The position numbers were made by a program, and so were the translations under genes. A stretch of 64,000 nt of DNA, filler included, from Rhabdomonas costata (lineage: Eukaryota), in NCBI GenBank assembly GCA_019059605.1. It is 28 parts of 28 records of this genome, joined end to end, with 100 filler letters (N's around TTAATTAATTAA, not from the genome) between each part and the next. Parts side by side here need not be neighbours in the genome. Positions count along the whole stretch, not along the records: positions 59,557 to 61,741 come from JAHMHO010004977.1; 27 more parts are not named here. One strand, given 5' to 3'. The notes under the pieces are model-generated. The model worked only from the letters and a program-made list of their open reading frames with translations. It did not search any database and was not told the DNA's origin. Below are positions 5,844 to 61,841 of the stretch, piece by piece. The stretch's first letter is position 1, and each line of letters begins with the position of its first letter.

Positions 5844-7555
5844 GTAAGGTTAAGGCTTTGGCGACTTGAGCGACTTTTCCCACCAACTATAGAGAAATGA
5901 CTTCCCCTCAACTCAGCCCCGGCCCCTCCTGCTTCTTGCCGCAGGGTTGTTCAGTCGATTTTGTTTCTTCCCTCATTTTTTAGTTTTATTGTAACTTCTT
6001 GGGGTCTTGGAACCACTTCCGTCCGTCCTGAACCTGGCCCACGTACAAGCTTGACGATTTCTCATTTCTTTCGTTTGTCTTGGGAGCACCTGCCCGAGAA
6101 GTCCTTCCCATTTATCCAGCGCTGCTTGAGTGAGAAGGGAGCCTGCGTTTCTAAAGGGTGGGTGGGTGGTTTATCAGCACTCGTGTAGGAGGGAAATCGG
6201 TGGGGTTCACACCCCCTGATTTGTTTCTGGCTTTCCTCCCTGGGACGATTAGCTAAAATGCACTCCTGTGTGTCCCCGCATTTATGCGGGGGGCGGAAAG
6301 AAAAAGATGGGTTATTGTTGGCCACCTTTCGTAAGACCTCTCCCCCTCCTCCTCCCTGAAGAAGTCTTCATGTACTGATGAAGGGCGCCCGTTGACTTAT
6401 CCGGCACAGTGGGGGGATAGCCCCACTGGGGGGGGGGTTGTCTGGCTCCTTTTTTGCAGTCATGTTTTGCCCTTTTTGATTTGGAACCTCGTGTTCTGAT
6501 CTGGACAACGCAGTGAAAGTGCAATAATTTTGTAGCTGTGGTTCGCCGGATGTGTCTGTTGCTGGCTCACCTCCAGCTTCTTGGTTCCCGTCTGGGCGCG
6601 GGTGCCTCGGTTCCCAAGTTTAGCTTTCCATTGTTCTCAAATCACTATCCTCACATTGCATGGACATGAAAGAGCTCTCATCCACGTCTGTAACTCCTGT
6701 AACTCCTGGGCCCGTCCTAGGTTGGGTTAGGTAAGGGTTAGCGTGTGGCTCTGCGCTAACCCTTACCCACCAACNNNNNNNNNNNNNNNNNNNNNNNNNN
6801 NNNNNNNNNNNNNNNNNNTTAATTAATTAANNNNNNNNNNNNNNNNNNNNNNNNNNNNNNNNNNNNNNNNNNNNGTGGGGGGGGCGAAATCGGTTTGCTT
6901 TTGAGGTTTACTCGTTGTGTCCGTTGTGGGTGGTGAACCTATGCCACTTGATGGATTATGCGCAGACGGTAGATGGGAAAGATCCCAGATACAGGTGGAA
7001 GGTCAGTTTTCTATTTTAAGTGGACTTTTATGTTATATTGAGGTGCACTGGTTTCCTGCGCTTATGCTGTGCCTTGTGTGAATAATTGTTTGCTCCCAAC
7101 CCCACCTTGCCTAACTCTCCTCGACTCGAGAGGTATTGTTCTCCCAAAACCTGCCTCGAGGAAAAATAATTCGGTTTATTTTTCGCAAAACTCAAAAGTA
7201 AGTAAAATGCCCGTGTCCACAGCGATATATCCGATTTTATATGCGATCAAGCGGAATCGTGCGTGTGAAACCAACACGAACCTTGCAATTCAACAACTCC
7301 TTCAATGCGCGAAAATAACCCCGACCATCCGATTGCTCTGTCGGAAGACCAACACTCCACTGCTGTCGTTGCCTTTGAGGGTGTTTCCTTCACAAGAACA
7401 AATCGATCATGAGTGGCGAAAAGTACAGTGGGTGCGTTGGGACGACGTTTGCCATTTGGTTCGAGGGTTTCAGTTTAGAAACGGGTCCCTGCCATCGTTT
7501 TTGTGTGATGCGTTTGCTCCGCACGTGTCCTGTGTGGCATTCTCGGGGTGCGCAG

Positions 7556-8912: not shown

Positions 8913-11900
8913 GTGCCCCTTCCCCTCCCGGAGTCACGCAACCCCACCCATCATCTTTTCTCTGCGCAATGCATTATGTTTGTGGGGGAGGGGACACCAG
9001 TCGATGTTCGATTGATAAGTGGTGGGATAACGAACAATAGCATTTGGTGTGCCCTCCCCCACAACNNNNNNNNNNNNNNNNNNNNNNNNNNNNNNNNNNN
9101 NNNNNNNNNTTAATTAATTAANNNNNNNNNNNNNNNNNNNNNNNNNNNNNNNNNNNNNNNNNNNNGGTTGTTGTGTCATGTCATGTTATGTTATGTCATA
9201 TTGGGGCCGAAAGGGGGGTTTTTGTATTTTTGTTGTCGCGTTTTGTTTTAAGTTTTGGAAAATGCGTGAGTGTGTGGTTTGAGCCGTTTTTGACGTTTTC
9301 TATACTTGGGAGTAATTTGAAAAGCCCGCAAGGTTTACAGTTTTGCAATTACGCCCGTTTGAAGTTTAGGTAGTTGGGTTTCGGAAGGCATTAGCAACAA
9401 CATGATCAAACAATAATTTTTGGAAACGCTTTTTGCGTTGATTCTCAAAGAGAGCGAGCAAACGTACGATGGAGACGCCAACATATACGTCCCACCACAA
9501 TGCCTTCATCTCCATTAGCTCTCTCCATCAGCGCAGGTAGCATCTTTGAGAAAAAGAGCGAGCATTTCGTGCTAAACATTATAAACGCAGAAACGTCTTC
9601 CCGATGGCAAGAATATCTACACTAAAGATGTGATTTGACTCCAATGTACAGACACAAGTTTTCTTTTAAACGAAAAGTGCGCGGAAAAAAGTGAAAAAAA
9701 ACTGCTATTCTTTCACGCTTTCCCGTGCAAACTAGTCAGCACGCTTTTTAATTTCGAGAATTGGGGTCTACCTCAAGAAAAAGGCGTGATTGTGGCGATG
9801 ATCTTTTGATCAAGTCGCAATTTTGCTTACTCCGCTCTTATCACCCCATGGCTCTGGTGGTGCCTCCCGCGAGGCACAGTGAACCCACGCAAGGGCAACG
9901 CGTGGAGATCTGGAGAAGGAGGAGTGGCATCGGAAGGTGGCCATCTTCTCTCTGACGGTCCCTCCCTCCGGTCGGTCCCTCCTCCCCTCACACTTCACTC
10001 ATTCTCAATCCCCGTCGGTCATGCGGTGGAGTGGCAGCAGAGTCACTCATCAACCCCTCGAGGCATGGTCATACCAGCATCCCTCTCACATCATCCCTCA
10101 CTCTGGGTGGTGGTGATGATGGTTGAGTGCCACTGGTAGTCAGGAGTGAGGGAGCAGGAGGGTGGGTTGCGCCTCTGTCACTCTTCAGCCCAACATCAGG
10201 AGGTACCATCACGGCATCATCGCATCATGGCATCTTCCTCTCCGTGTGGGAGGGTGTACAGTGGGGTGCATCAGCCCATCCTGTCACTCTTGGCCTCAAG
10301 CATCCGTCACTCCATCCAACATCATCATCAGGGTCGGCGACCTCCACTTTGAGTGTTACCCTGATGTGGGATGGGTGTTGTTGGTGCTTGGTATGTACCT
10401 ACTCTGCAACATCGATTGTACCACTACCACCACTGCCTCTGTGTGTGGGTATACCGTAGCATCACGTATACTACCACTACCACTACCACTAGAGTGTGTG
10501 TATGTGGGTAGATCGAGCGCACAGTTCCATCTGGGGTACGGGACCAACATAGGTGTTCCCTCCAGTGGGTAGGTACGCTGTGACCTCATCGCCACTACTA
10601 CTGCACGTGGGTACATCTTGGTGAGTTGGACCATGTGTGTATGGTTGTCTTGCCATGATTCCTGCACTCAGGTTCAACCGAGATGAGAATAGGACGCCAG
10701 ACTCCAGGCATTGCCACTTGTCATGGAAGCTCACCCCACGCACCATCATCGGGCTCAGTCACATGGCTTGAGTGACGTTGCATCACCGGTTACCACACAT
10801 CTTACCTCATATAGGGCTAATGTACGTCATAGCCTGGCATCCATCACCAGGTCTTCCTTCAGTGGGACCACCACTGGAACAGCGCTGTGCCTTTCACAAG
10901 TGATACACACGTATTGCCAGGCGTACCTGATCACCACCTCACCCATCAGCGCAGTCACCTCAACTTCGCATGCGGAATGTTCGCATATGGTACTGGGGCC
11001 AGAGCTTTGCTTTGGTGTCTTCGTGCAGTCGCGTACATTGAGTTCAGTCCTCTCTACCAGTACCTTGTCCTGGATCCGCAGACCCTTCCCTGGCTACCTT
11101 CAAATCTCAGCTTAATGGTGATGCCGTATTGCGTCCGACACTTTCCCGGGAGATTCCGAAGGACTTCCAAATGACCCCGAATCCAGAAACAAACAAAAAA
11201 TCGTTGCTGGCACACCGGTGTGCAGGTGGACGGTGCGCCAGCCTACAGTTCTTTCTCTTATCAAGCTTAGGCTCAGTACGCAGGCCTGCAAAGGGCCAAA
11301 AAGGGCCCATGCAAGCCTGTGTAGAGGCAAAAAGGGCTCAAAAATACCCCAAAAACNNNNNNNNNNNNNNNNNNNNNNNNNNNNNNNNNNNNNNNNNNNN
11401 TTAATTAATTAANNNNNNNNNNNNNNNNNNNNNNNNNNNNNNNNNNNNNNNNNNNNGGTGGGTGGTTCTCCGTATTACTGAGTACGTGGAGTCACGCTCT
11501 ATCACGCTATTCTGCAGGTTTCTTATGCAATGGCTGTGGTGTATGGAGTTGCGTGCAACGGTTCCTCCAGTCTTCGCAGAAGCAGATGAGTTATCTGATG
11601 GCGAAGACCGCACCCTGATTGCATTGTGGTGGCCTGCTCCGAATATCCTTGGCTATAGATAAGCTCTTTTTCAAAGTGATTGGGCAATTGCAGTCCTTCC
11701 TCCAAACGTTTCAAGCAGTCTTTTGGGATTAACTCGTAGGTGTATGCGTGCGTATAGTCAGCGCGATTTCTGCGGAATGTCTTTCTCCAGTTTTGACTAG
11801 CTAGAGGAGGATCAGTATGCCTTACTTCCGCAGTTACAGAGAGCGAGGTAGGAGGCTGCTGTGACTATGCGGTTATGATTTATAGAGTGACTCACCATCC

Positions 11901-18782: not shown

Positions 18783-20659
18783 GCACAAACGCACGCACAC
18801 GCACACGCACACATACGCACAGACACACGCCCACGCCCACCTGAGTTTCTACCTTGCAGACTTGAACGCAAGAGGTATTTGACAATTCGGCTGTTTGCCG
18901 TAGGCCAACCAGCGACATTTTTTGAGAAGCGTGCCAGTTCAGTGAAGAGTGAAGTGGGTTCACCAGTGGATCTGGCAGTTTCAACATTGAGTTGCAATCT
19001 TTTGTGCAGTGCATAGATGGTGGGGTATTCTCCCTTGGGGTTGCTAATTCCTCGTTTATCCTCGAAAAGAATGAAAGGACAGCTTCCGAGCCGCGCCGGT
19101 GTGCAACCTCGCAAGTCACTGTGACAACTTTACAGCTGCGACCGTCGCTTTGCGTGGATTGAAATACTCTTTGCAGTATGTGTGCGTGTGTGCGCACGCC
19201 CGCGCGTCACCTTCACTATCACCTATCCCGCGTATTCCTGAGCAAGACCAGCCGTTGTGTGCCGTTGTGCGTTCACACGTCCTTTCCTTACATCCGTTGA
19301 CTGTCCTTCCATCACGCTAATGCTGCCCTTACTGCCAAATTGAACTCCCGAGGGGAGGGGGCCACAGGTCGTAAGCACGCAGACTCTGGCCGCGGCGGCG
19401 GTTTCTGTTGATCTGTTCTCCGCGGCGTCGCCTATTGCTCTGCAACGCACGGCTGACTGTCCTGCGACCTTTGTGCTGAGCTTTGGCAACCGCACGGCAG
19501 CCATTGTTGCCGCCGTCCCACCGGCCACCGCCCTGTCCAATCAGCCTGCCCTGTCAAACCCCGGTGCGTGTTTGTGGGCTGTTTCTTCTGCCTGTGAGGT
19601 GGGGTGTTGCACCGGCCACTGCCAATGTTCACGTTAGCCGTGCCAAAGAGCGCAAATTGCAATTATTTGAAAGGAGAGCTGCCGCGGGGTCGAATGCACG
19701 CCGCTCTTCGTGTGTCTGGGGTCTTGCGATGGGCACACATCCACCTCACCAACCGTGCAATCTGGCTCCGCTTCCGTCGTGCGTTCTTTGCCGCATCCGC
19801 ACCAAAACCACCATTGACTCAGCAAAGTGCAAAGAAAGGCACCAATGTGAGCTTGGGGTCTTACCGCGGTTGCACTGTGCGGACGTGGAGTGGGCGGGTG
19901 TGGGCATGAACTCGCCGTGGTCCCCGACCCGTGGTAGGGATGGAGCCTGTGCGATTTGGGCTCAAGTGCTGAATAACAATCAAAAGATGAAGTGCAAAGG
20001 TATGCGTGTGTGCGATGCGATAGGTGGTGAGTGATCTAAGTGTCTAAGGCTTACCGAGTGCGCCGTTTCTGCGGGCATGCCCTGTTCCGATTTCCGTGAG
20101 TGAATATTGAAAAAAATGATTGAATGCCCGAAGGCATTTTTGCCAAGGCAATTGCCATTTGGTATATGCCACTCCACCCTATGTGTGTCTACTTCGTTTG
20201 CCTCTATTAGCTATAGATGTTCTTGGCATTGCATGTACTTTTAGATGAATTTCTGTGAAATGGAACGCAGTGTGTCGCACAGAATTGTAAAAAGACACAG
20301 GAAATGTGTCGTTACAATCGGAAAAGCCAGGAGAGCTTAACAACATAATGGACAAGTTGGGAAAACTTTGGAACTCTCCCTCTTCAGAAATGAAAGAAAT
20401 CATTCAAAACAAATTGGAGGTCATGTTGGGACGTGATGAAGCCTGCTTCAGCCGCCGCCCCCCCCCCCGTTTCCGTTTGTAACGACACATTTCCTGTGTC
20501 TTTTTACAATTCTGTGCGACACACACACNNNNNNNNNNNNNNNNNNNNNNNNNNNNNNNNNNNNNNNNNNNNTTAATTAATTAANNNNNNNNNNNNNNNN
20601 NNNNNNNNNNNNNNNNNNNNNNNNNNNNTTGTTGTTGGTGTCATACTGGAAAACACAGT

Positions 20660-24508: not shown

Positions 24509-26904
24509 GTATGTGCGTTCCTCGACTTGTTTGAAAGTTCTCGCATGGGTGGGTCGTTCATGTTCATTCTCGCCTGCTCGGCTGCAGCTGTGGCGTTACT
24601 TGGGGGTGGGGGTCAACTTTGGAAACTTTGGAAACCGTGTGTTCGTGTTGTTGTTTTACAGTGGTTAAAAACGCCGTGCCTCCTTGGTCGCCTTCCTCAA
24701 CATTGCCATCATACGCACCGAAAAAGGAACAGCTTAGTTCTCGAGACAAAATCGATCCCGAAACCCTTTCGGAGCTGCCTTCTGGTTACCAGAGAGTTAA
24801 CCTTCATGAAGCGCTGCAGAGGACAGAAAAGACTGTCGTCAAACCAAGACCAACTTCCTCAGATGAATGCAACCCTCACTGAGGCGAGAGAGCGTGTTTC
24901 GATTTCCACTCCCGCGCGTCCGGCGACCCGTGCGTGATTACAGCACATGAGCACTCGCAATGAAATCGAGGTTGGCAACCCAGCAAGCCAAGAATGCCTT
25001 TTGCGCGCACGCACACACCTGACGCAGGGTCGTGATTGTGTACAACGGCAGCCTGTGCCGACTACTCTCACTGTCTGGCGCGCTGTACGGCGGCCGTTGT
25101 ACACAACCCCNNNNNNNNNNNNNNNNNNNNNNNNNNNNNNNNNNNNNNNNNNNNTTAATTAATTAANNNNNNNNNNNNNNNNNNNNNNNNNNNNNNNNNN
25201 NNNNNNNNNNTGTTGGGTTGATCTCCCAGCGCTACTACAAGGATGGTGATGCTGCATTGGGATTTGCTCGAAAGGGCCGCGAGTTCGCTATCTGCATTTC
25301 CTGCGGGATTGGGTGAGGTTATGTGCAGGTGGAACGAGGGATGGGTGGCACCATCTGTCAGTAGCTGAGGCGTGGACAACTTGGAAGGCGTGCTCAGTGT
25401 GAAGGGATCTAGCTGCAGTAGTATGCTAGGGTGGTACATTGCCTCTGCGATCTAGACGTGACTTTAGCATGAAGTACTGGGTGTCTGGGGTGCGGACGTG
25501 GTGAGACAAGGTTCCTGGCAACGTGTGCCGTGGTGTAGTATCCGATCCGTGTTATCAGGTGCGTGGATCGACGTGAACTGAGAGGCGAGGTACCTGTTGA
25601 GGCTACAATCTCGCAGGTCCTGGCCGGAGTTTCTGCTGTCGTGTCGATGCTGGTTCTTCGCGCGTGTTTCTCATTACTCTCATTATTACGGTGCTACTAT
25701 GCATTGTATCCCTGCTAAGACGCTCACGGTTCCCGCAGATATGGTTGCAACGTCGCTACCCTGAATGCGAGGACAATGATCTCTTGTTGGGAAGGGTGTG
25801 GGTAAGCCTGGTGCAGCGTTCATGGTGGTTGGTGGCTCCCAGCTATCATCGATGCGTCAGACCAGGGCTACACGTCCGGATCGTGGCGTTGGGTTCATCA
25901 CGACGGTGGGTACCGACCTGAGGATGCAAGGACCTCCCGGACGCAGTGTCATGGGAGGCCCACTGTGCATGCAAACCCCGGGCCTGCTTCAGTTTCCCCG
26001 TCATTATGTGTGGACGAGTGGAAAAAGGACAGTTACACGCTGTAGTATAATGTCTACAATACCCCATTATTATGATAATACACGGCGGAGAAAAGAGGGT
26101 AAATCTTTTCTCCCGCAAATACCTAGGTACTTGGACCACTCTGCTGTGCTACGCGGCAAAAGACAAACTGGAAAACAGAAAACACGAACACGCCCCAGCG
26201 AAATATGTCGGAATCCGAAGGGACAAGCGTTTCGCCACCCAAGCCCTCGCAAAAGTTTCTATTCGAATCCCAAGAGACACGAACGTCGTCTGCTGAGCCT
26301 ATAAACTCAGGCTATGAAGATGGGTGACACAAACAGTGAACGCTTGTCTCAAACAAACAGAAAGCAAAGCAGACCCCCAATCCATCAAATTCCGCTTCCG
26401 AGGAGACCCAGTACGAGAAGGAAAGTGCAGCAGGGTAGCGCACAACTCGAGGTCGGAATATCAGTACAGACTGGATGTAGGCCGACTTCGTAAGTTGCTG
26501 AGAAAATGCTTCTGTGCCATTCAGCTTCCAAGTTACACAGCGGTCCTCTGAACGAAGAAAAAAATTAAGTTCAATGTATTAACCCCAACACTCCTTTTGT
26601 CTGAAATCTTGGGCAAACTTTAATCATAGCATCCACCCAAGATTTTGGAAAGATTCGAGAGAATAACGACACCATCACACCATCACACATAAATCCTTCG
26701 AAACCAAATTCTTGTGCATGTTTTTCTGTTTCCAAGTGGAATTTCCAAAATTTACCACTTGACTCCAACGTAAAGCTCCGTTCAGGACAGGCATGAGCAT
26801 GCCGAGTGTTAGAAAAGAGGGAGAGACGAAAAGGCCATTCGAGGACTTGAAACACTGCACAGAACCTCGGTCTGGAAACTTTTCTATGCATTCCGAGAAC
26901 CAAT

Positions 26905-31981: not shown

Positions 31982-33086
31982 NNNNNNNNNNNNNNNNNNN
32001 NNNNNNNNNNNNNNNNNNNNNNNNNTTAATTAATTAANNNNNNNNNNNNNNNNNNNNNNNNNNNNNNNNNNNNNNNNNNNNGTGTTGGGTGTGTGTGGGG
32101 GTTTTTGTCATATCTCCGTTGTTTGACGCCCTTTTTGCTTTGCCCTTTTTCATGTTTGCGCGGGAGGGGCTGCCCGCCTGCGTTTAGGGTTACTTCCCTT
32201 CAATCCACTTCCCAATCTTTTTTCCTTGTGGTTCCGCGAGGAGCCAGGCAGCCCTGCACACAAATGGTGTCTGCGGAGTCGGTATCTTAGCGGCGCACTT
32301 CCCCTCCCTTCGTGCTTCTCACCCTTGTCCTCGTTTCTCAGCCTTTCCCGCCCCTGACTGCTGTTCCACGGTCTCCACGGTGGCGGCTCATAGGCTGATC
32401 CAGAAGGCTGTCGGTTGGATAGTTTTGGTTAGTTGAATTGTTTTCAAAAAAGACAGGTGGGTTCTAAAGTTTCAATGTGGTTGGCAATGCAAGGAAGCTA
32501 GCCTGGCGCCTTCGCGTTCAGGTTAGGCTTAAGGGGCTGCGATGAATCCGAGGAAAGGTGGTAGGGACGCGGATTGGTTTTGAGGGGTTTCCATCCCGGT
32601 TTGTGATCGTTCAATTATTACTATAGGTGAGAGGGTGGTCAACGTCCCTTGTCTCATGAATGACGCTCACACACTTTAGCCAAGCATGGGTAGGAACCGA
32701 ATGGTTATGTGTACTGGCATGCACCCACAGGATCGGTTCTTCGTTTCAGAGGAACATATGTCTTTCTCTCCTTAGAGAACAGATTTCTCTCTGATCCGAT
32801 GTCAGAAATTCATGTTCGCATTGGCAGCGACGGGAGTCGAATCACTACTGGGTAATGTTGTGCATGACATCACGCTTTAAAACATAGAATTTTTGTTTGG
32901 GCAGCAAGCTCAGGCCGTTCCCCAAGATCGGCCAAACGAGCCACCGAGAGTGGGGTCACCGGGGCTGGAAAATAGGCGATAGAAGTAGTGGCACTCCGCG
33001 GCCAGCAGCGCGGAGTTTACTGGAAAAAGGCGCGGCGAGAGGGGGGCACCACCCTCCACAGTGTCACTCCGACTTTCTCCCGGCAG

Positions 33087-34632: not shown

Positions 34633-36550
34633 TCAGGGTGGGCGGCACACGGCATTGAGCGGCACACTTCGGCCCTTATCAACATCCCAAAAAGTAAAGT
34701 TGGGGTTCCATCTGGCCCTTCGCAAGAAAGCTCTCCGGCATGCAGGCAACAGCTTCCGCTTGGAGTACCCGTTGAAGTGCACAAACACAGGTGTCGTTCC
34801 TGGTAGGTTGAGAAAAATAGTCCACAAGTCCAAACACGGTACCTACCTACCCAGCTCCGAATCCATGGATGTCCGATTGTCAGTTTGTTTGATTGCGCAA
34901 CGAGTTGGAAGTGGGGACCTCTGGGCCCAGTTCACAGATCATCATATTCATAGTTCATCATATTGCAGAGAAGCAAAACAACCTCCGGACGAAAACACAC
35001 TGTAAAATAAAACACAATTGTAAAAAGCAGTACCGGTTCTCGCAAGGCGCGGTGATTCGCACCGAGAAGCCCTGGAGTAGGACCGGCATATTTCAGGAGC
35101 CGTCTCGTTGACACCTCGGGCGGAGCGCTTGCCCTGCCGGCGCATTAAAGCCGCTGAGCGAAAAACGTTCGCCGTAAGGAAAAGCTCTGCACCATAATCC
35201 ACCCCGGCGAACGCCGGGTTCTCGAGCAATATCAGTGACATTATTGCCTGCAAAAAGAATTGAAGGTGATTATTGGAAGATCACGCGCACGCCAAGCCAG
35301 GACTAAAAGCCACCTGATCGTCAGCTTCTCGACGATGCAGCCGAGCAAAATCAAAAAGTTGTCTGAGATGTTTGTACCTTCCAGCGTAAAGCCCTGTGAA
35401 GAAAGAATCAAGCTCTGCGCCGCACACACTGTGTAATATGAGTTATTTTGGCCAGTTGGGTTCGTGTGTTTGTAAAAACGGTGCGGAGTTTTCCGGTCCC
35501 CAGCAGTTGGAGCTATGTCCACTGTGTATGTAAACTGTTTACCGTGACCCCAAATTTTCTTTGCTCCTGTCGCATACTTGAAGCTGTTTTATGTTTACGC
35601 GGTACTTGTCTGAAGTTCGTGGTCCGTCCCTCCCTCCCTGATGATAGCCTTCGCCATCGTCTTTCAACGTTATTAAACGGTACAACGCCGTTACAAGGTG
35701 AACGTAAGTTACAAGGTGTTCTTATAACGTATATTATCGGCGTTATACGGCTGGACGGCCACGGGCGCCTGGCCGCTAACACAATCTCTGCTTTTTCCCC
35801 TTCCTTGAATCTTCGTCCTCGAACTCGGACCACCCTGCTCGTTTCCCTTATTAACATTTGCTAACCGCCGATAGCAAATGTTAATAAGGACTAACCCACC
35901 ACCTGCCTCAGGCTTCAAAATGGGTTCAAACAAACCCATGACGAAAAGAAATCATCACTGCAAACATAATGATTGTATTTTGCCATTCATTCATCAATCC
36001 AAAGTCCGGCGCACACAACAGGAACACAATTCAAAGGAGAGGGGACAATGGTTTTAAAGGTCAGCTCGAAAAGCACGTTAATTCCATCGTGTTCACAGTG
36101 ATATCTAAAACTTTCATGCTCCTCAAAACGTTAACCGGATACGACCGGCAAATGTAGATGTTCCAAATTTGTTGCGAATAACACACAAGAATAGACCCCA
36201 GAAAAAGTGTTGATAGAAACGCTGGGAGGGGGGGGAACGGGCCAGAGCCGGGACCAGAAGGCTTGAATTTGAAAACGGCAGAAAAATGGGGTGGAACAGT
36301 ACGTCTTGCGCCGCCTAGAAAACTTCTGGAATGTCTGATTGTCAACACTGTGCAGGGGAATTTGTTCCACTTGCCCCGAGCAAACAAGGAAAATAAAAAT
36401 GAGGGAAGCACAAAAGAAGAGCACACCTGAGTTTAGGAAATTGTAAATGGAGGACTTTGCGGTTCTATTCGCAGAGAGTGCAGTCAAGGCAGCACAAACA
36501 TCAGCCGAATTATTCCAACGGAGGGAGCCTCCAGGAGCTGGTCGGTAATT
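34633..36550 (-). CDS. PLOD/LH3-type glycosyltransferase domain protein, last four exons (36427-~36550, 35314-35393, 35034-35247, 34633-34799)
   Basis: All three introns are GT-AG and phase-consistent. The spliced product carries YNFLNSGLYAGR, DDQAIMSLILL, VDYGAELFLT and TPVFVHFNGYSK, the motif series of the PLOD GT domain (FLNSGxxxG, DDQ, LDxxxxLF, PxxxHGNG). It ends at a stop with no oxygenase domain. Confidence 0.85.
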
Positions 36551-41945: not shown

Positions 41946-44195
41946 ACTGGCTCTGACCATTTCTTGACATTACTGAACCTTGTACGTGATGGACACTTCC
42001 AGTGTTGACTGTTTCTTAGGTAGGTCAAATAACGAATCTATGCCTAATATAACTACTACTAACGTGCCTTAAGATTTTAAACATTTTTTTCCTCTTTGGA
42101 ACATGGTTTAGATGGATTACTAATAATTTAAATTTACATGGAGTATTCAAAAAACCAGAAATATCTTTATCCACTGAGGTTATTCAAAATTCCATTTATG
42201 CCTTGTCGCATGACTTGAAGCGTAATAACGTAGCAGAAAGCTGTAAACATTCGCCGACAAAAGTTCTTACTGCGTTCCTAAAAAAAGGACAACCATACCA
42301 TAGCAAAACTCCGGATAAGGTTCTCAGTCCACGAGCAGAAGCAATACAAGAATATATTTCGGCTCAAGCTAAACGTTGCTCAAGGATTTTAGAAATAGAA
42401 GCTCAAACCAAGGAGCTAGCATTGCAAGAATTGTTAATAGAAAAAACCGACTTAGGGTTGTTGACAGAATTTAACCCTAACAACGAACCACAAATAACAC
42501 GGCTAACTAAGTCGCTCCAACACACGTTAGCCAAAAAAACGCTATAGAACTAGCAAAAGAACACTTTGAGGTTGTGGTTTGGCCGACCAAAATTGCTGAA
42601 ATTTTAAGTCAGAAAACCTAGAACAAAAAACCAAAAATGCTTGTGGATTACTTTTGTTGTGGTTAAAAGCGAGTTTGGTAGGTTTTTGGCCATTTTGGTG
42701 TTGTCGGTGTGGGGGTTTGGTAGCAAGCATCAAGAAAACGTCTTCTAATTAAACTCTCTGCCCTCAGCTTTACTCAAGCCATTTAGTACTCGACACCTGC
42801 ACTCTGGACTTTTTTCTTCTCTTAGGCTCTCGACTTTTCAACGCTCACATGTAACACACTTTTCTTCTTGCACCTTTGCTGAACGTTATTGGAAGTGAAG
42901 ATTTTGAGCTTCAACTCTTCTGCTTCTTTGCAACTTCAGCTTTCTTCTACTTTGAACTTGATAACGCTTCAAATTGGAATTTCATTGATTCCATGAGATT
43001 TTACTCATCTGTCAAAAACCTCTTAGCTTTCTTTAAGTCAATGCAACAGTTCTGGGAAAAGCATGCACTGAACTTAACATTCCCATATGTTTTTGAAACC
43101 AAGTAGCAGTCACCAAACAACATCTCTTGAAAACGTGCCACCTAACTTTACTGAGCCATTTTTAATATTATCACAGCGTTTACTTTCGAAATTACTGGCG
43201 TTTTCAATAGGTCATCAATGTGGTCACGTAGTCTCATATTCGACAGGAAAAGTTAATGAGAGGAAAATAAGCCGAATTTAAGGACAATTGTTGGGTAATA
43301 ATTCAAGGAAACGCAATGTTTATTCTTTTTCTGGTTTCAGTTTTGGCTACGCCGAATGAATATCCCGAATTGTTTGCCCACAATCCGGTAAATTGCTACT
43401 TATAACAAGAAGCATTTTAAGTGGTAAGTGGNNNNNNNNNNNNNNNNNNNNNNNNNNNNNNNNNNNNNNNNNNNNTTAATTAATTAANNNNNNNNNNNNN
43501 NNNNNNNNNNNNNNNNNNNNNNNNNNNNNNNGGTGTGTGGGAAAGGGCTACAGGGACCAGAGTATTCCGTGTGTGTTGAGGCACTGGGCCGGGATCTGCT
43601 CGTTAGCTCACTGTGCGGTGTACTCCGTTTCCGGGGAGTCGGAGTGTGACTCTACCCCTCATCAGGGGCGTGCTGACCCCTGACCAGAGTATTCCGTGTG
43701 TGTGTGTGTGTGTGGTACTGATGAGGTGTAATTTCCCTGTATTGGAGAGCTATGCTGGTGAAAAATAGATTTATATGGCGAAAATTGAAGAAAAACTTAT
43801 CGAGCCTTCATAATTGCACATTAAAAGCGAGTATCGTGGATCCGAAATTCTCAGTTTGGATAGAGGAATTACAGCAAAAATTTCGGCTTCTGATGCATTC
43901 CTTCCCGTTTTGGGGTTTTGCTTTAATTGAAAATTTTACCTGAGACCCAGAAAAGCAGCCCAAGCAATTTATTCCTGAACGCGTTTTTCAAAGCCGATCT
44001 CCGCACCCTCCGCTGTCGATAACAAGAAGATGAGCACTAATGGAAACTAATACAACTCAATATATTGAGGTATGACGAAAACAGCGCAAGACGGCAATCG
44101 AAGGCGGACAGCGACGCACGACTGGGTTTCTTCATGGCCCTTTCCTACAGCCCAGCGACGAAGACATGCAATGCTAGGCAAACAGAACGCAAGAC

Positions 44196-44885: not shown

Positions 44886-45882
44886 CTGCGCAAGCAGAAC
44901 AGCCCCCCAGCAGCAATGGGCACACAGAGGATTATGCACAAAGAAAAACGAATGCTTGGATAACCTGGCCACCGTCGAAAACGTACCCTTCAAAAACACC
45001 CCTTTGGTGGAATAAACCAAGGAGAAAAACTGAATTTCTCCTGAGTCACCGTACGTTCACCATCTATCCTGTGTCCACCTCCTCGGTCAGTCAGTCCCCC
45101 CTATCTTTCTCTCTCACTGCTCTCCCTGGCCATTCAGGTTTTGATCTGCCACAAAGATGCCAATGTCCCAATGTTTTGCACACAAACGAAAAATGCATTC
45201 TGCACTGAGGTAGATTGGATTTGAAGCACCCCGTTGGGCGGTCGTAAAACTTGCAACAAAGCGGAATTCATACAGAAACAAAGCGTGGCGATCAAACCTG
45301 TCGGTACTTTTGGGGGAGTAAATCCTCAGAGGAGCGGCATTGCTCCTCTGCGGATTCAGCTTTGGCGCTACTTCGCACCAACCGTTGCAGAGTGTGCTGA
45401 AAAGTCTTCAGATATTCTTCCGGGGCATGGGTTAAAGCGTTTGATACTGCCATCATTTGATGTCGAAAACAAAAGACATTATCCTCACAGCGGACGGAGA
45501 TGCGAATCTGTTTAAGCCTGCTAAAAGGGCTGCAGATTCATCGAATCATTCAGTACCCACAATTCAGCACATGAGGAAGTGGACATCAAGGTATTGCGAG
45601 TCTTCAAACACGCAAGTGACCGAAAGTGGACCCTTGCGTACCTTACGGCTTCTCATCTCTTTCTTGTTCCGTACGTGTTGTTTGCTGTTTGCTGTTAAGA
45701 AAAAAAAAGGGGGGGGGGGGGNNNNNNNNNNNNNNNNNNNNNNNNNNNNNNNNNNNNNNNNNNNNTTAATTAATTAANNNNNNNNNNNNNNNNNNNNNNN
45801 NNNNNNNNNNNNNNNNNNNNNTGTGGGGGAAAGCGCATCCAGTATTTCACTCAAGCACTCTCGTCTCGTACGTGATGAGATC

Positions 45883-48012
45883 GCTTGAGTGAAATACTGG
45901 ATGCGCTTTCCCCCGCACCTCTGGTGTAATGTCCAGTACAAAGATCGTCTCCGTACTCTTTTTAATGATGGTAAACTGTCCCACCGCTTTCGGCATCAAA
46001 TTCCCCGGGGGGTCTCCAAATCTCCCTGGTAATGCTTCCGCTTACTGATCAACACATCCTGACACACACAGAATTTGTAATCCGCTCTTTTGCGATTGGT
46101 ATACGTCGCAGCCTCTGCTTCTCCTTCTCGAATGCCTCCCGCACTTTCTTCCAAATTGTTTTCATTTTCTGAATATGGACTTTACCTTCACCTGGTGTGG
46201 GCTCTGTAGACTGTGGAATGTTCCACCAGAACACCGGATGGTACCCGTAGTTCAGGCAGAATGTGATGTACTCTGTATTGGCAATAGACGCACTGTTGAT
46301 TGCAATCTCCACAAGTACCAAAAGATCCATCCAAGTCATGCCTGTATGCGAATACATCAGCGTAGTCATCACCTGCTTCATGGTCTGATTGGTCCTTTCG
46401 GCTTGCCCGTTAGTTTGTGGTTGGTATGGCAAGGATCTTCTGCTCTGGATGTCCATGAAGATCGGATCTAGATCGCTCACAATACTCATCGGCAAACCAT
46501 GGTGTCTCACTACCTCCCACCAGAACAACTCTGCAATGTCGTGGGCATTCATTTTGTTATAGCACGGTATCAACACAGCCATATTCGTTGCCCTATATGT
46601 AACGTTAAAAACCTCATTCACCACCTGCCCTTTGCCTGAAAACTTCCAAGGGCCTGGCGGCATGGAAACGAAATCCAAATGGATTCCCATTTCCTCACGG
46701 GCACCTCCAACACCTGTGTATGGCCTCTTGGCAAATGGTGGTCCGCATCTCTGACACACATCAAAGGTACGCACATAAGCTCGCACCTTTCTCTTGATGT
46801 TCTTGAACGTGTAAGTGCGCTTGATCATGGCGGCCGTCCTGGCTACTACACAAAGCCCTGATGCTGGAGAATTGTGGTACCGCGAAATCACCTCTAACTC
46901 CATCTGGAAATGTACCACAATCTTCCACAGCTCAAAAATTCTACCATTGTGCCACTTTGTAGGGTCCAACAACTCTGCAGTGGTCAAGTTGAAAGACCTC
47001 TTCCGCACTATTGGGTCAATCAAGTAGTCTGCCCACCAATCCTCTGGATTACCTGCTGCTGCCACCCTTAAAGGTGCACAGAGAGGTCTATTGAACCCCA
47101 ACGTCGCCAAACTCAACAAACACTCCATCTGTGCAAATCCCAGACTCGCCTCGTCCACTGGGTGCCTAGATAAGGCATACGCAGCGACATTTTGCCTTCC
47201 GGGAATATGGGCTATCTGCAAAGTATACCTCTGCAATCTCTCCAACCACCGCACTTGCCTTGGCGAAGGCCGGGGGTTCTTCTGCAAATAGCTTAACGCC
47301 GAGTTGTCCGTGTGAACTCTGACATCTGAACCCAGCAAGTAATGCCTCCATTCTTCCAACGTGTCTACCAACTCTAGCATCTCCTTCTCATGCACTAGGT
47401 AGTTTTTTGGAACAATACGCCACCAAGTGCATCTTTCCATCTTCACCTTGTTGCGAAATTGTGTCTTCAATCCACACATCTGAAGCATCCGTGTGAAGCA
47501 CCATTGGCATCTTAAAATCTGGCACGACCAAAACTTGAGATTTCAACAGTCTGGCTTTCAACATCTGAAACGCCGTCTCCTGCGCTTCACTCCAAACCCA
47601 CTCCTTCTTCTTCTTCATTAAATCCGTCACTGTGGCTGCCACTGTGGCGTAATCTTCCACGAATATCTGGTAAAACCCACACAACCCAAGAAAACTCTTC
47701 ACCTCAGAAGGGTTCCGCAACTGCGGCCATTTGTACACGGCCATTAACTTCATCGGCTGTGGTCTGGTCCCATTTCTACAAACAATAAATCCACAATACT
47801 CGACTTATGGCTGTGCAAACATGCACTTCTCTGTATTTACAAAAAGCTTCTCTTTAACCAACCTCTGGTACAACACCAGCAACGCTTCCACATGGGCTTC
47901 CAATGTCTTCGTATGGACGAGATTGTCGTCCACGAACGCATCTGTAGTCTATCGCAGATACTCAAGAACGAAGTCCATGGTTCTCTGGAACCTGGCTGGG
48001 GCACACCCACCC
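45883..48012 (-). mobile_element. Degenerate Ty3/Gypsy pol (RT-RNase H-integrase)
   Basis: RT: APARFQRTM, FVDD, VKSFLGLCGFY. RNase H: LHTDAS, EKEML..EEWRHYLLG, VHTDNSAL. Integrase: IVSDLDP, QTNGQAERTNQ, C-terminal HPVFHSS. The order RT-RH-IN is Gypsy-type. Stops and frameshifts are present. Confidence 0.97.
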
Positions 48013-48112: not shown

Positions 48113-50260
48113 CCGCTTCAACAGCGCGAACATCAGCGACCGTCAGGTCGCGAACAGTAGAGCGGGCGGGTCCACTGCGAAGAGCAGGCGGAGGGCGGGA
48201 GGAGGACTGCTCGGTCTCGGCCATGATCCGCTCCCGTCGCCGAAGAACATCGGCAAGGCGTTCGCAGAGCAGGAGGTGAAAGGACCGCAGGATGATGGTC
48301 ACCTCCCACTTTTCCAATGCAGGTAACAGCCCTCGTAGTGAGAGCGGGAGCAAACCCACCGCAAGGTGAGGAAGGTGAGCTTGTAACCACGCAGGAGGGA
48401 GGCCGGGTCGACCTCGAACTCCACAGGCCTTGGTCCAGAAGTCGGGTGCTAACTGCACCAAGTCAGAGGAGCCCGTAGTGGGGCACCCCAGCACCGCATG
48501 GGCGTCGTCCTCGATGGCGGCAGAGCAACAGAGACACCGAGGAGACGAAGCCAGTCGTGCAGTGACAAGCCGGGCCTGGGTATTCAAAGCACCAGCACGA
48601 GCACGGGCCACCCACTTGAGGACCGGGGGGCACACAGGATATACGAAATGGTGATCTGCCACGTGCGGGCGCCGGAAGAGCACAGTGGAAGAGGGCCAGT
48701 CAAAGGCCATTCCAGCCGGGTACAGCTGAGCGAGCCAGGCTCTGCGGGCACTGCCCTCCTGAAGTCGGGCGGTCCACCAGGTTGTAGTAACAGCTGCTGA
48801 GAGTTCCGAGAGGCACTGGCCGGCTTCATCGCGGAGCTGGACCGCGTCCTCGAAACGCGCATCGGAAGAGTGATATTGCCTCCTGGCGTGAACCGCCTGC
48901 TTCGCCAACAGGTCCGCCGCCGCATTGCCCAGAGCCTTGACTGCTCCCTTGGACGCCGCCGCGTCGTCATGCGCCTTCACCTTCTCTAAGGTGGGTGCAT
49001 CAAGGCGATGGGCCCATTGATGAAGGAATTCCCTTACCACCACACGCTCAGGGCACGAAAAGACCGCCCTGGGAGAGCGTCGGCCCCAGGCTCCCACCAG
49101 CTGCAAGGCACAGAGCGACTGGAAACCCGCCACGAGGGTGAGCGCCACCAGTTCACAATGGGTGGAGCTGCGAGGCTGTGGGACACTGTTCTGGAAGGAG
49201 ACGGAGGAATACCACTGCAGGGCCGCCGCCCCTCCCTGGCTGCTCACCGAGCCGTCAGTCCAGACGGCACTCCGAGGAGGGGGGTCGTCGGCGGGCAAGT
49301 AACGGATTTGGCCCCGGTAGCAGGGCTCGGGGTCCAAGTGGGGCCAGTTAGAAGCAGTTACAGCCTGGCGGTTGCAGTAGACTCGCCACCGGAGAGAGGA
49401 AAGCGCCGCTCCAAGTGCAGGAGTAGGCTCAACCCATGTAATCCCATCAGGCGAAGCCAGCGTACTGTGCAGAGTACCCAAAAACCCCGAATGATTGGCG
49501 ACGACCTGGAGCCATCGGACCCGACGAGCAAGCATATCCAGCGCGGGTCCGGAACGGCGTAAGCTCCCAAAGGGAGACCCCCGATTACTTCCACGGCGGC
49601 GAAGTGGCTAAGGCAGAGTGGAGGGAGGCGAGTGAGTGCACGCTTCCCTTGGGCCCACAGAGGCAATGGCTGAGCGTTCGAGACATTGCGCACCTCCGAG
49701 CCATAGAGAGCCCGAGGGAGAACGGCCGCGCCCCACAACTGAGAAGCCACAGGGGCGGGTACAGACAGCCCCACCAGCCGGCGGCCTGAGAGGAGGGCCT
49801 GCGGAAGCCGGGTCGCAACATGGGTCGCCAGCTACCTCCATGCGCAGCTCGATGGCCACCATCCGGAAGGTGGCCCGAGACTCAAGGTCCAAGGGCCCCG
49901 AGTCCAAAGTCAAGGTAATCTTCTGACCCCCGGCAACTCCGAGCACCAAAGTTCAGTTTTGCCCAGGTAAAGCTGCACACGAAGGAGCTGACACCAAGCC
50001 TGGTACGCGCCCACCAGGAACTCCACTTCTCGGAGATAGGCAGCAAGCAGACGCACGTCATCCGCGTAGCTGGTTGATGCAAGATATGAGTCATCCAACT
50101 TCACCCCAACCAGCGGTGGAACGGCTCGAATAGGATATTCAGGAGGTCGGGACTGGCCGGGCAGCCCTGGGCACGCCCATTGGCCATAGTCCATTCCGAC
50201 CCATCGACTTGGCCGTAACGGAAACGGTGCCGGAGGTGGGCATAGAAGTGCTTGAATCAC
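48113..50260 (-). mobile_element. Degenerate non-LTR retrotransposon (LINE): RT end, RNase H, C-terminal zinc finger
   Basis: RT: SYADDVRLLA, GKTELW, VLPRALYGSEV. RNase H: VWTDGSV, STHCELVAL, EKVKAH, GNAAADLLAK. Zinc finger: CLCC...EDDAHAVLGCP. At least three frameshifts. Confidence 0.93.
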
Positions 50261-54670: not shown

Positions 54671-55145
54671 CTGAGCGCAGATAAGAAAGTTCAATGCCCA
54701 CTTCTCGTCAGCAAGGCGTGCCATCAGGATCGCCCGCACAGACTCTGAGCAATTATGCAGGCACTACTCTGAACAAACCCCATCAAAGCACCCTTGCAGA
54801 CTGCAGATTAGCCCTGACCGCCCCGCCGGAATGGACGCCGATGCCAAGGTGGAAAATAGAAGTATGAACAACCACCCACNNNNNNNNNNNNNNNNNNNNN
54901 NNNNNNNNNNNNNNNNNNNNNNNTTAATTAATTAANNNNNNNNNNNNNNNNNNNNNNNNNNNNNNNNNNNNNNNNNNNNGTGTTAGGTGTGTTTGGGGGG
55001 GTTGGTCCACGTTGAACTTTCATTTGAGTTTACTGGGTACTTTTTGGAATGTCTATGAATTCCGGTTTGACTTACGAGGGCGCAGTTCAATTGCCGACCC
55101 GTGTGCGCCGTGTGCAACAACTCCCATTCTCACGCAAACTCGTAC

Positions 55146-59310: not shown

Positions 59311-59608
59311 TCTCACAGCACTCTTCACCATTGCCGCCATGCTCTCTTCTAGGCTGGCATCCCCTAACTGGGTCGACTTTCCGTATCTTCACCACCTCGG
59401 TCTCCGGCATTGCTATTCTAACTTCTCCTCTTTCGACTCTGCTGCGCGACTCTTCGNNNNNNNNNNNNNNNNNNNNNNNNNNNNNNNNNNNNNNNNNNNN
59501 TTAATTAATTAANNNNNNNNNNNNNNNNNNNNNNNNNNNNNNNNNNNNNNNNNNNNGTGGGGTGGTGTTTTTAACGCGAAGGGAGCAGGGGTGGGTTCAC
59601 AAAACGAC

Positions 59609-61591
59609 CTCGATGTAGCTCTTAATGCAGTAGCAGATGTCAGCGTTGATGTGCACCTGCGCCGTGCTGGCGGGAAAGTACGAGCTGCACTCCTCTCCGG
59701 AGATCGTTCGCCACGAGAACAGGCACCCTTTGGTTTTTATCCCCGTTGCACTCCCTTTCGGCGTGTCTCTTTTGCGCCCTGCTGATGTTCCGGTACTACA
59801 CCCTGGACGCGGGCGTACTCGGGGTGGGTGTACAGGAAGAACGGGATGATGTAGATCTCCGTGTCCCTGCCGCGATGATTTGATGCCGATGCGGTCTCAC
59901 AAGAACGCCGCAGGACGCTGCTGGAGGGAACCATAGCTAAAGCTACTGCCCATTACCACCAGATTTGCAGCGAATGTAGCAAACTTCCTAGTTGTCTCCC
60001 CATCATTGATTACAAAGGCTCATATTGTAATGTCTGGTTGGCCAAAGCACTTGCAAAGATTGCAAGTCAAAGTGAGTGTCTCTGCAACGAGGAAGCCTTT
60101 GGCGCCCACAGCACGCTACAATAGATCTGCTAGTGTAATTTTCACCAGTACCACCCCATCTTTCAAGTGAGGACACAGCACCTTAACGCCGGAGAGAACC
60201 CAGAAGAGAGGAAAAGGGAAGCGCCGTTGACGACGGCATTGTGGCCGTGCGCACACCAGAAGTAGTGCCCGTTGTAGCCCTGCCCAGTGAGGCCCTTGGC
60301 GCCGCTGTTGGTGCGCCCCTCGCGGCCCACGGACTGCAGCAGGTGGAACAGGTTGAAGCGGATCCCCTGCTGCAGGTAGCTATCCCCCCGGATCTCAATG
60401 TCCGCGGCCTTCCAGAAGCTGTGCAACCGCACAAGCACTCACATAACTACCCAACTGGGGCGGAAAGGTCCCAACACTTTGGGGCGGACGCCTTGACGGC
60501 GACGCTTCTTCTCCGAGCAGCAACAAAGGTCTGCACGGTCGCTCCAGCGGCATGGACACAAAGGGCACAAAGACACAAAGGCAGCGGACATCCCAGTCCG
60601 AAAAGAGTTGAGTTCACTTCAAACACGTCCAGCGTGGGGCTTTGAGTCATGCAACACTATTTTTCGGCTGTGACGCAGCCGGGGAGGGCAGTGCTGGGCA
60701 TACTCCTCGAAGAACACGCGGTTCTCGGCGCGGATCGCTTCGTAGCCCAGCTGCTTGGCCTCCGCCACGACGGCCTGGGCGGTGCGGTGGAGCTCGTCCT
60801 TATCCATATCACGTGAGGTGATATAGCTGACGAACTTGGTCAGCGTGACGCTTTGGCTGTGAGAAGGAAGAGAGAAAATTGGAGAATGCTGTACTTAAAA
60901 AGGAAGAAGTTAAATATGGGACGCACTGAATCAGCTTCGAATCCTGAGCCGAAGCGTAGAGGAGTTGAATTAACTGAAGGAAAGAAGCTGGCACCGTTAC
61001 TGATCACTATGCTCAGTTAGCGCTACTTGTTTCGAAGCAATTTCAATTGACAATAACGCAAGTTTCGAAGAAAAAAAGAACAATCACCACTTCGTTTTCA
61101 ATTCGACTCCCCGTCTCCATCCTGCGTTTCCTATCATATTAGTTGGCATGCCATTTAACGATATACCCTGAGATGTACCCTGAGATGCCTTTCACTTCGC
61201 CATGTTAAAAAAATGGGAAACTCACCCGTCACCACTCACCGACATTAGAAATTCAACGCCGAGCAAAAAAAAGGCAGGGGGTTTGGAGACTGTGAGTTGG
61301 TGGGTGTGAATCGGGTTGATAGGCGTACCCTTGCTTTAGGGGCACCGCGAAGCGCACCCCAACCTTCTCATCCTGGATGAGGTCCCAGGCCTCCTCCTCG
61401 AACGCCACGGGCTTCCCACTGCTGCAGTGCACCTCGTTGTCCATCGCGCACACCATGAAAAAGTTCGAGAAGAACGTCCGCTGCTCTAGCGCGGCGTAGG
61501 TCCCACCCTGCTTCTTGTAGATCGTCTGCAGGGAGGGCGCAAGGTCGCTCAGCCGGGGGTCCACCGGCCCCCCATGCGGGGTGAAGTGCTC
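59609..61591 (-). CDS. GH65 inverting disaccharide phosphorylase (trehalose/maltose/kojibiose type), exons 61329-61591, 60704-60856, 60257-60418, 59609-59866; last exon locally rearranged
   Basis: Phase-consistent GT-AG introns. Motifs FWKAADIEIRGD, QQGIRFNLFHLLQ, GAKGLTGQGYNGHYFW|DTEIYIIPFF and GCLFSWRTISGEECSSYFPASTAQVHINADI are GH65 catalytic-domain signatures. Confidence 0.95.
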
Positions 61592-61841
61592 CTGCAGAAG
61601 ACCGGTAGTGCATGAAACTGTGTCCGGTGTCACGCACCAATGGTTTTGCAATCAGCAGCACCGCTTTTTCGGCAAGGATCCTCGCAATCATTTCAGCGCG
61701 GGTAAACTTCGCGGTGCATGGGTGTACGGGGAGAAAACACCNNNNNNNNNNNNNNNNNNNNNNNNNNNNNNNNNNNNNNNNNNNNTTAATTAATTAANNN
61801 NNNNNNNNNNNNNNNNNNNNNNNNNNNNNNNNNNNNNNNNN

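Follow-up and report, generated by a model that had tools for sequence, protein, structure and literature searches.

In the scrambled genes of ciliates, segments of a gene can lie in inverted orientation. To our knowledge, such rearrangement at the DNA or RNA level is not known outside ciliates, and we know of no germline/soma nuclear dualism in euglenids. Short template-switch inversions, which include inversions of the spacer between inverted repeats, arise naturally in genomes; as PMC5453318 and PMC8604942 describe them, they combine an in-place reverse complement of some tens of nucleotides with microhomology at the switch point and a cluster of neighbouring changes. For the nonconventional introns of Euglena gracilis, PMC11170887 gives the consensus motifs CCAGG at positions +3 to +7 of the 5' end and CCTG at positions -9 to -6 of the 3' end. 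Strand switches at short microhomology also generate the snap-back chimeras of whole-genome amplification, which are inverted duplications that end a contig. A universal primer for such amplification is given in PMC10781638 as an 18-nt G/T sequence to which K10 and NN are appended, with a variant in PMC6961581. The euglenid draft genome presented in PMC8219788 was obtained from sorted and microdissected cells whose DNA was amplified with a commercial kit; its coverage was estimated at 10-20x, its contig N50 is 1.2 kb, and its proteins are stated to be predicted from the transcriptome only. The locus described here, in which eleven codons of a GH65 exon stand on the opposite strand, shares some feature with each of these systems. 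Although the lesion is real in the sequence, it most likely reflects either an artefact of the laboratory or a copy that is dead, and not real biology.

The window, that is, the whole 64-kb stretch that was analysed, consists of 28 contigs of 2159-2205 nt each, sorted by length and joined by identical linkers (N44-TTAATTAATTAA-N44, for example at 59457-59556). Since the linkers contain stops in all six frames, open reading frames or repeats that run across them are meaningless. The minus strand of one contig contains a partial GH65 gene of the trehalose-phosphorylase-like type with three complete GT-AG introns (Table 1). In a Pfam search, pieces of its exons matched positions 1-37, 37-55 and 69-131 of the PF03632 profile, and one piece matched PF03636 weakly. 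A protein search with one exon yielded P0001 (1384 aa, source name eukprot:RCo007337), which carries the domains PF03636, PF03632 (E = 1.5e-115) and PF03633, together with a weak PF00702 (HAD) match, and whose name is presumably linked to a euglenid species with a published draft genome. The next relatives of P0001 include one labelled by its source as Eutreptiella, which is a euglenid.

Table 1. Features of the contig that carries the lesion, and terminal fold-backs in the window
Feature	Position	Strand	Length (nt)	Remarks
Contig with the lesion	59557..61741		2185	N44-TTAATTAATTAA-N44 linkers on either side
G/T-only run at the low contig end	59557..59572	+	16	amplification-primer remnant
Start of the next intron	59573..59608	-		GT donor 59608-59607; cut off by contig end
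Exon part, P0001 residues 426-466	59609..59731	-		KGCLFSWRT...IKSYIE
Orphan segment	59732..59775	-	44	replaces the expected 36 nt for AARKRAREINLK
Inverted block, P0001 residues 403-413	59776..59808	+	33	ALLMFRYYTLD; tblastn
Exon part, P0001 residues 384-402	59809..59866	-		DTEIYIIPFFLYTHPEYAR; CAG acceptor 59869-59867
GT-AG intron	59867..60256	-	390	splice points from P0001 alignment
Exon, P0001 residues 329/330-383	60257..60418	-		sole differing residue, S versus I367
GT-AG intron	60419..60703	-	285	
Exon, P0001 residues 278/279-329	60704..60856	-		
GT-AG intron	60857..61328	-	472	
Exon, P0001 residues 191-278	61329..61591	-		tblastn
3' part of the upstream intron	61592..61741	-		CAG end at 61594-61592; runs to contig end
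Six terminal fold-backs (inverted duplications)	2092-2192; 6730-6767; 8980-9064; 20270-20524; 25036-25106; 45825-45914			

When P0001 was compared with the window by tblastn, residues 191-278 (88/88) and 426-466 (41/41; minus strand 59731-59609) were identical, and residues 279-328, 331-383 and 384-402 were identical save one, I367, which is S in the contig. In the 88/88 match (61591-61328), the codon of G278 is completed with the first G of the intron; in the spliced reading, its last base comes from the next exon. After the exon part for residues 426-466, P0001 continues ...SYIE-ATNDQ, and the contig reads GAG followed by GTCGTT at the same point. The near-identity of the exons to P0001 indicates that the window derives from the organism of this protein or a very close one. 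P0001 itself reads collinearly through the affected region (...HPEYAR-ALLMFRYYTLD-AARKRAREINLK-KGCLFSW) and holds residues that the contig cannot encode; therefore, it was not derived from the contig. At the single differing site (60306-60308, minus strand), the contig codon is AGC (S), for which an allelic difference and an amplification error are both possible.

According to the original prediction, the minus-strand gene loses family similarity after ...HPEYAR and stops at 59737, whereas the motif expected next is written on the plus strand. This description is accurate. The family match on the minus strand ends at R402 (CGC, 59811-59809), after ...DTEIYIIPFFLYTHPEYAR, and the frame past R402 runs as VQGVVPEHQQGAKETRRKGVQRG to a TAA at 59739-59737 (ORF 59737..59952). 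The plus strand at 59776-59808 reads GCC CTG CTG ATG TTC CGG TAC TAC ACC CTG GAC, i.e., ALLMFRYYTLD, and P0001 residues 403-414 (ALLMFRYYTLDA) match plus-strand positions 59776-59811 with 12 of 12 residues identical. The flanking minus-strand match (P0001 residues 384-402 at 59865-59809) is likewise identical throughout, and positions 56-68 of the Pfam GH65 profile are exactly those missing between the two minus-strand pieces. An exact match of 11-12 residues to the sole missing stretch, in place, cannot be chance.

In these respects, the site resembles the short-range template-switch inversions described above: the exact reverse complement of the expected sequence occupies the same place (12/12 residues), it is tens of nucleotides long, microhomology is present at both switch points, and other changes cluster beside it. 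At one switch point, GCG (59809-59811) is common to both readings, and at the other there is GC (59774-59775), so that the sense match of the block can be extended to 59774-59811; microhomology of 2-4 nt is weak evidence alone. The 3-bp inverted microhomology that had been predicted to bound the block does exist (CGC at 59775-59777 and GCG at 59809-59811), but it is trivial. Unlike typical spacer inversions, the site is flanked by an inverted repeat of only 3-4 nt and has become 8 nt longer overall, and for 35 nt no template could be identified. No second copy of the 33 nt was found in the window. No significant inverted repeat, and hence no fold-back with both arms, was found in the contig, and the altered stretch showed no special DNA fold in terms of hairpin potential (z = -0.23).

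The neighbouring segment is more difficult to account for. The codons of R402 and K426 are 77 nt apart in the contig, as against 69 nt expected, and these 77 nt consist of the inverted 33 nt and the orphan 44 nt. The peptide ARKRAREINLK (residues 415-425) had no tblastn match on either strand of the contig, and the 44 nt aligned with the back-translated peptide no better than shuffled sequences did (168/500 for the minus strand and 423/500 for the plus strand). On this ground, the 44 nt were rejected as a copy, whether diverged or inverted, of the 36 nt expected here, as only the first 10 nt fit. These are the first nine orphan nucleotides together with the C at 59776 (CGC AAA AGA G), which agree with R416-K417-R418-A419. 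A fit as good was reached by 37 of 2000 shuffles when anchored at this place and by 580 of 2000 when unanchored, and it suggests a loss of 7 nt at the junction. With the same C included, the orphan segment is purine-rich on the minus strand, having 2 T in 45 nt. A search for its source elsewhere in the window or in P0001 gave only chance-level matches of at most 12 nt; 35 of the 77 nt are thus without an identifiable source, and a nearby template does not account for the whole of the changed stretch.

When the 33 nt are flipped, the minus strand reads HPEYARALLMFRYYTLDA, followed by KETRRKGVQRG and a stop, which is out of frame with KGCLFSWRT; the orphan segment had been said to be out of frame with the downstream exon, and this is confirmed. 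The suggestion that the segment might itself be an inverted intron is not supported, as it has no AG and fits the expected coding sequence in neither orientation. Among GH65 relatives, the spacer from PE.AR to G..F.W is 13 residues (33 proteins) or 14 residues (42 proteins) long, as counted in 75 of the 87 fetched relatives, the pattern having found nothing in the other 12. The longer in-frame reading that the contig gives is therefore no natural variant. The contig has no intact in-frame catalytic-domain segment between these motifs, the first 11 codons being inverted and the rest replaced. Owing to the frameshift and the stop, the contig copy cannot make the enzyme, and the inversion alone cannot yield P0001.

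These results bear directly on whether the exon could be scrambled in the ciliate manner, as a genuine feature of the euglenid nucleus. Under this reading, a rearrangement of DNA or RNA would flip the 33 nt and bring in the missing 36-nt segment from elsewhere. As in ciliates, part of the coding sequence sits on the strand opposite to the collinear segments that flank it in the same gene; moreover, the inverted block is exact (12/12 residues), it abuts the preceding exon codon precisely, and a collinear product exists. However, ARKRAREINLK is absent from the contig in any frame on either strand, and flipping alone leaves the frameshift and the stop. Since this peptide is not encoded and the 44 nt do not fit it, flipping cannot restore the gene, and unscrambling of the locus alone is excluded. 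Ciliate-type genes have all segments of the product in the locus and matching pointer repeats; within the contig, residues 415-425 are missing and the repeats at the junctions are a trivial 2-3 nt. On the plus strand, the flanks of the block lack AG/GT splice signals, the rest of the gene has ordinary GT-AG introns, and a single case has been seen, in a euglenid. Programmed rearrangement, which if true would provide the first scrambled nuclear gene outside ciliates, is thus very improbable, as the evidence speaks against it.

Within the context of euglenid biology, it is also conceivable that the 77-81 nt between HPEYAR and KGCLFSW form a short nonconventional intron and that the likeness to the GH65 motif is incidental. 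The organism group is the right one, and the minus strand starts with GT-CCAGG, which agrees with the 5' consensus of E. gracilis (PMC11170887). Nonetheless, this GTCCAGG is no more than the T-L-D codons read as their reverse complement, and the 3' consensus CCTG is absent at positions -9 to -6 for any end that would keep KGCLFSW. There is no terminal pairing, the stretch has no special fold (the z of -0.23 given above), and 77 nt is not a multiple of 3. The stretch replaces protein-coding sequence, such that its removal would delete 23 residues that are present in P0001, and the segment is kept by all 75 relatives in which the motif search found it. With the 5' motif present, the 3' motif absent, the frame wrong and a collinear P0001 that contradicts it, this candidate was rejected; it is even less probable than programmed scrambling.

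A different perspective is offered by the ends of the contigs. Runs of at least 7 nt that consist of G/T only, when read inward, were present at 45 of the 56 contig ends and were mostly 10-11 nt long. At two ends (32082-32108 and 54980-55005), most of the 18-nt universal amplification primer has been kept and is followed by a 10-nt G/T run. These runs and 18-mer remnants match the published primer, which indicates that the contigs were assembled from primer-amplified DNA. At primer-type ends, the terminal 10-30 nt originate from the primer and not from the genome. In addition, 6 of the 56 ends have a terminal fold-back whose arms are exact and 13-48 nt long, the loops measuring 10-159 nt; 200 shuffles gave 0.025 on average and never more than 1. 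These six fold-backs are snap-back artefacts of amplification, and they can be mistaken for hairpins or terminal inverted repeats. Strand-switch artefacts are thus frequent at the contig tips of this window. The lesion itself lies 175-250 nt from the low end of its contig, which starts with a primer-type run; at the high end (61734-61741), the minus-strand sequence is GGTGTTTT. An internal G/T run at 59729-59738 was considered as a primer footprint and rejected, as the universal part of the primer is absent; G/T runs inside contigs are common (182 in 60,180 nt versus 63 in shuffles), and such a run proves nothing alone.

From this context, we infer that the lesion is a local double template switch that occurred in vitro, during primer-based whole-genome amplification, and we assign this reading a probability of roughly 0.6. 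A DNA polymerase copying the sense strand would have abandoned its template once past the CGC codon of R402 and, by way of a GC-rich microhomology of 3-4 nt, paired with the other strand immediately beyond the TLD codons. Copying backwards for 33-35 nt would then have produced the in-place inversion. On its return, the polymerase would have overshot by about 7 nt and landed downstream at the CGC of R416, so that the event amounts to a spacer inversion in place that also deleted a few nucleotides; a garbled, purine-rich stretch of 35 nt would have followed. The net outcome would be 77 nt in place of 69, with the frameshift and the stop, and low coverage of the contig tip would have let the lesion persist. 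The gene that the organism expresses is collinear and intact. The GC/GCG microhomology at the junctions together with the 10-nt fit to R416-A419 gives the pattern of such a switch-and-return event. The amplified template, the frequency of strand-switch artefacts in the window, the location at a contig tip and the otherwise perfect copy of the gene all favour an in vitro origin. The comparison with snap-back chimeras extends to the right junction: there the motif is followed by the antisense of the preceding exon, exactly as a snap-back at CCGC/GCGG would leave it, and the same window holds six fold-backs and primer remnants. A literature search for inverted chimeras produced by the amplification kit returned nothing directly useful.

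There are, however, features that fit an in vitro origin less well. The six fold-backs are inverted duplications at the very end of a contig, whereas the site is an in-place inversion in which nothing is duplicated and beyond which the exon is collinear again after 77 nt. This requires two linked switches, which are rarer than one. A double switch is also plausible with strand-displacing synthesis in vitro. A clean switch would not produce the 35 orphan nucleotides, which are unexplained under either origin. Moreover, the I367S difference could mean that the contig represents an allele or copy different from the expressed one. A literature search for inverted chimeras produced by the amplification kit returned nothing directly useful.

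It is within this context that a real lesion has to be weighed. The GH65 gene would then have a heterozygous null allele, or a duplicate of it would have become a pseudogene very recently, through a short-range template switch or error-prone break repair in vivo; an intact copy would give rise to the transcript. Molecules carrying both junctions presumably existed physically, since a k-mer assembler should be unable to join sequences over a 3-nt overlap. The I367S difference between the contig and P0001 is such as another allele might show, and an in-place inversion with microhomology is a hallmark of natural short template-switch mutations (as set out in PMC5453318 and PMC8604942). Nonetheless, the intact state of the other exons and of all three complete introns argues against an old pseudogene, and with all other compared exon residues identical and the splice sites intact, an event in vivo would have to be very recent. 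In addition, the rate of such coding lesions expected in approx. 60 kb of genome is far below the rate of strand-switch artefacts in the window (6 of 56 ends), and the site lies in a contig tip beside a primer-derived end. A null allele or young pseudogene is thus possible but less likely than a template switch during amplification. Of the three readings that had been put forward originally, amplification artefact, which was named there as a serious alternative, is now the best supported, in view of primer remnants at 45 of the 56 ends and fold-backs at 6; a dead allele or paralog stands as the lesser possibility, and the scrambled exon repaired at the DNA or RNA level is not upheld, given that ARKRAREINLK is encoded on neither strand of the contig and that the flanks of the block carry no AG/GT.

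Searches for an independent copy of the locus were consistent in their outcome. A near-length protein search, in which the query was the frame with the 44 nt and the downstream exon, gave no matches. A shorter-length protein search with P0001 residues 384-466 gave 53 matches, all of at most 69% identity and none from the organism of the window. Among metagenome contigs, 30 loci were recovered, likewise at no more than 69% identity; 28 of them were 52-69% identical (with residues 1-76 to 1-83 matched) and two were 36% identical (residues 3-71), so that these contigs contained no close relative and hence no independent copy of the locus. Bacterial relatives retrieved with P0001 residues 384-466 reach at most 69% identity there.

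This finding serves as a warning that a draft genome assembled from a few cells whose DNA was amplified with primers can contain not only fold-back tips but also in-place micro-inversions within exons. Such artefacts mimic pseudogenes, odd introns or scrambled genes. In an intron survey that aligns transcripts to such a draft, this site would count as an intron whose borders are non-canonical. Three simple signatures can flag regions of this kind, namely contig ends that carry G/T-only runs, inverted repeats at the termini and a location of the oddity close to a contig end.

Several further observations concern P0001 and other parts of the window. Several of the closest relatives (among P0001 and P0003-P0006), including the one labelled Eutreptiella by its source, are fusions with a C-terminal HAD domain and may therefore join a trehalose-phosphorylase-like portion to a beta-phosphoglucomutase-like one, and the C-terminal tail of P0001, approx. 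350 residues long and of low complexity, looks like read-through. The contig at 41242-43431 has a G+C content of 41.5% and, unlike almost all others, has a primer-type G/T run at neither end; it contains an open reading frame at 42053-42547 on the plus strand that had no Pfam match. This contig may have a different origin, e.g., organellar or contaminant. In another contig (62.7% G+C), whose low end lacks a primer-type run, a 498-aa open frame on the minus strand (48114-49607) shows weak matches to PF13966 (reverse-transcriptase zinc-binding, E = 1.3e-4) and to RNase H (PF00075, E = 5e-3) and is probably a fragment of a non-LTR retroelement. Finally, an internal perfect hairpin with arms of 18 nt and a loop of 8 nt is located at 35846-35889, far from the contig ends.
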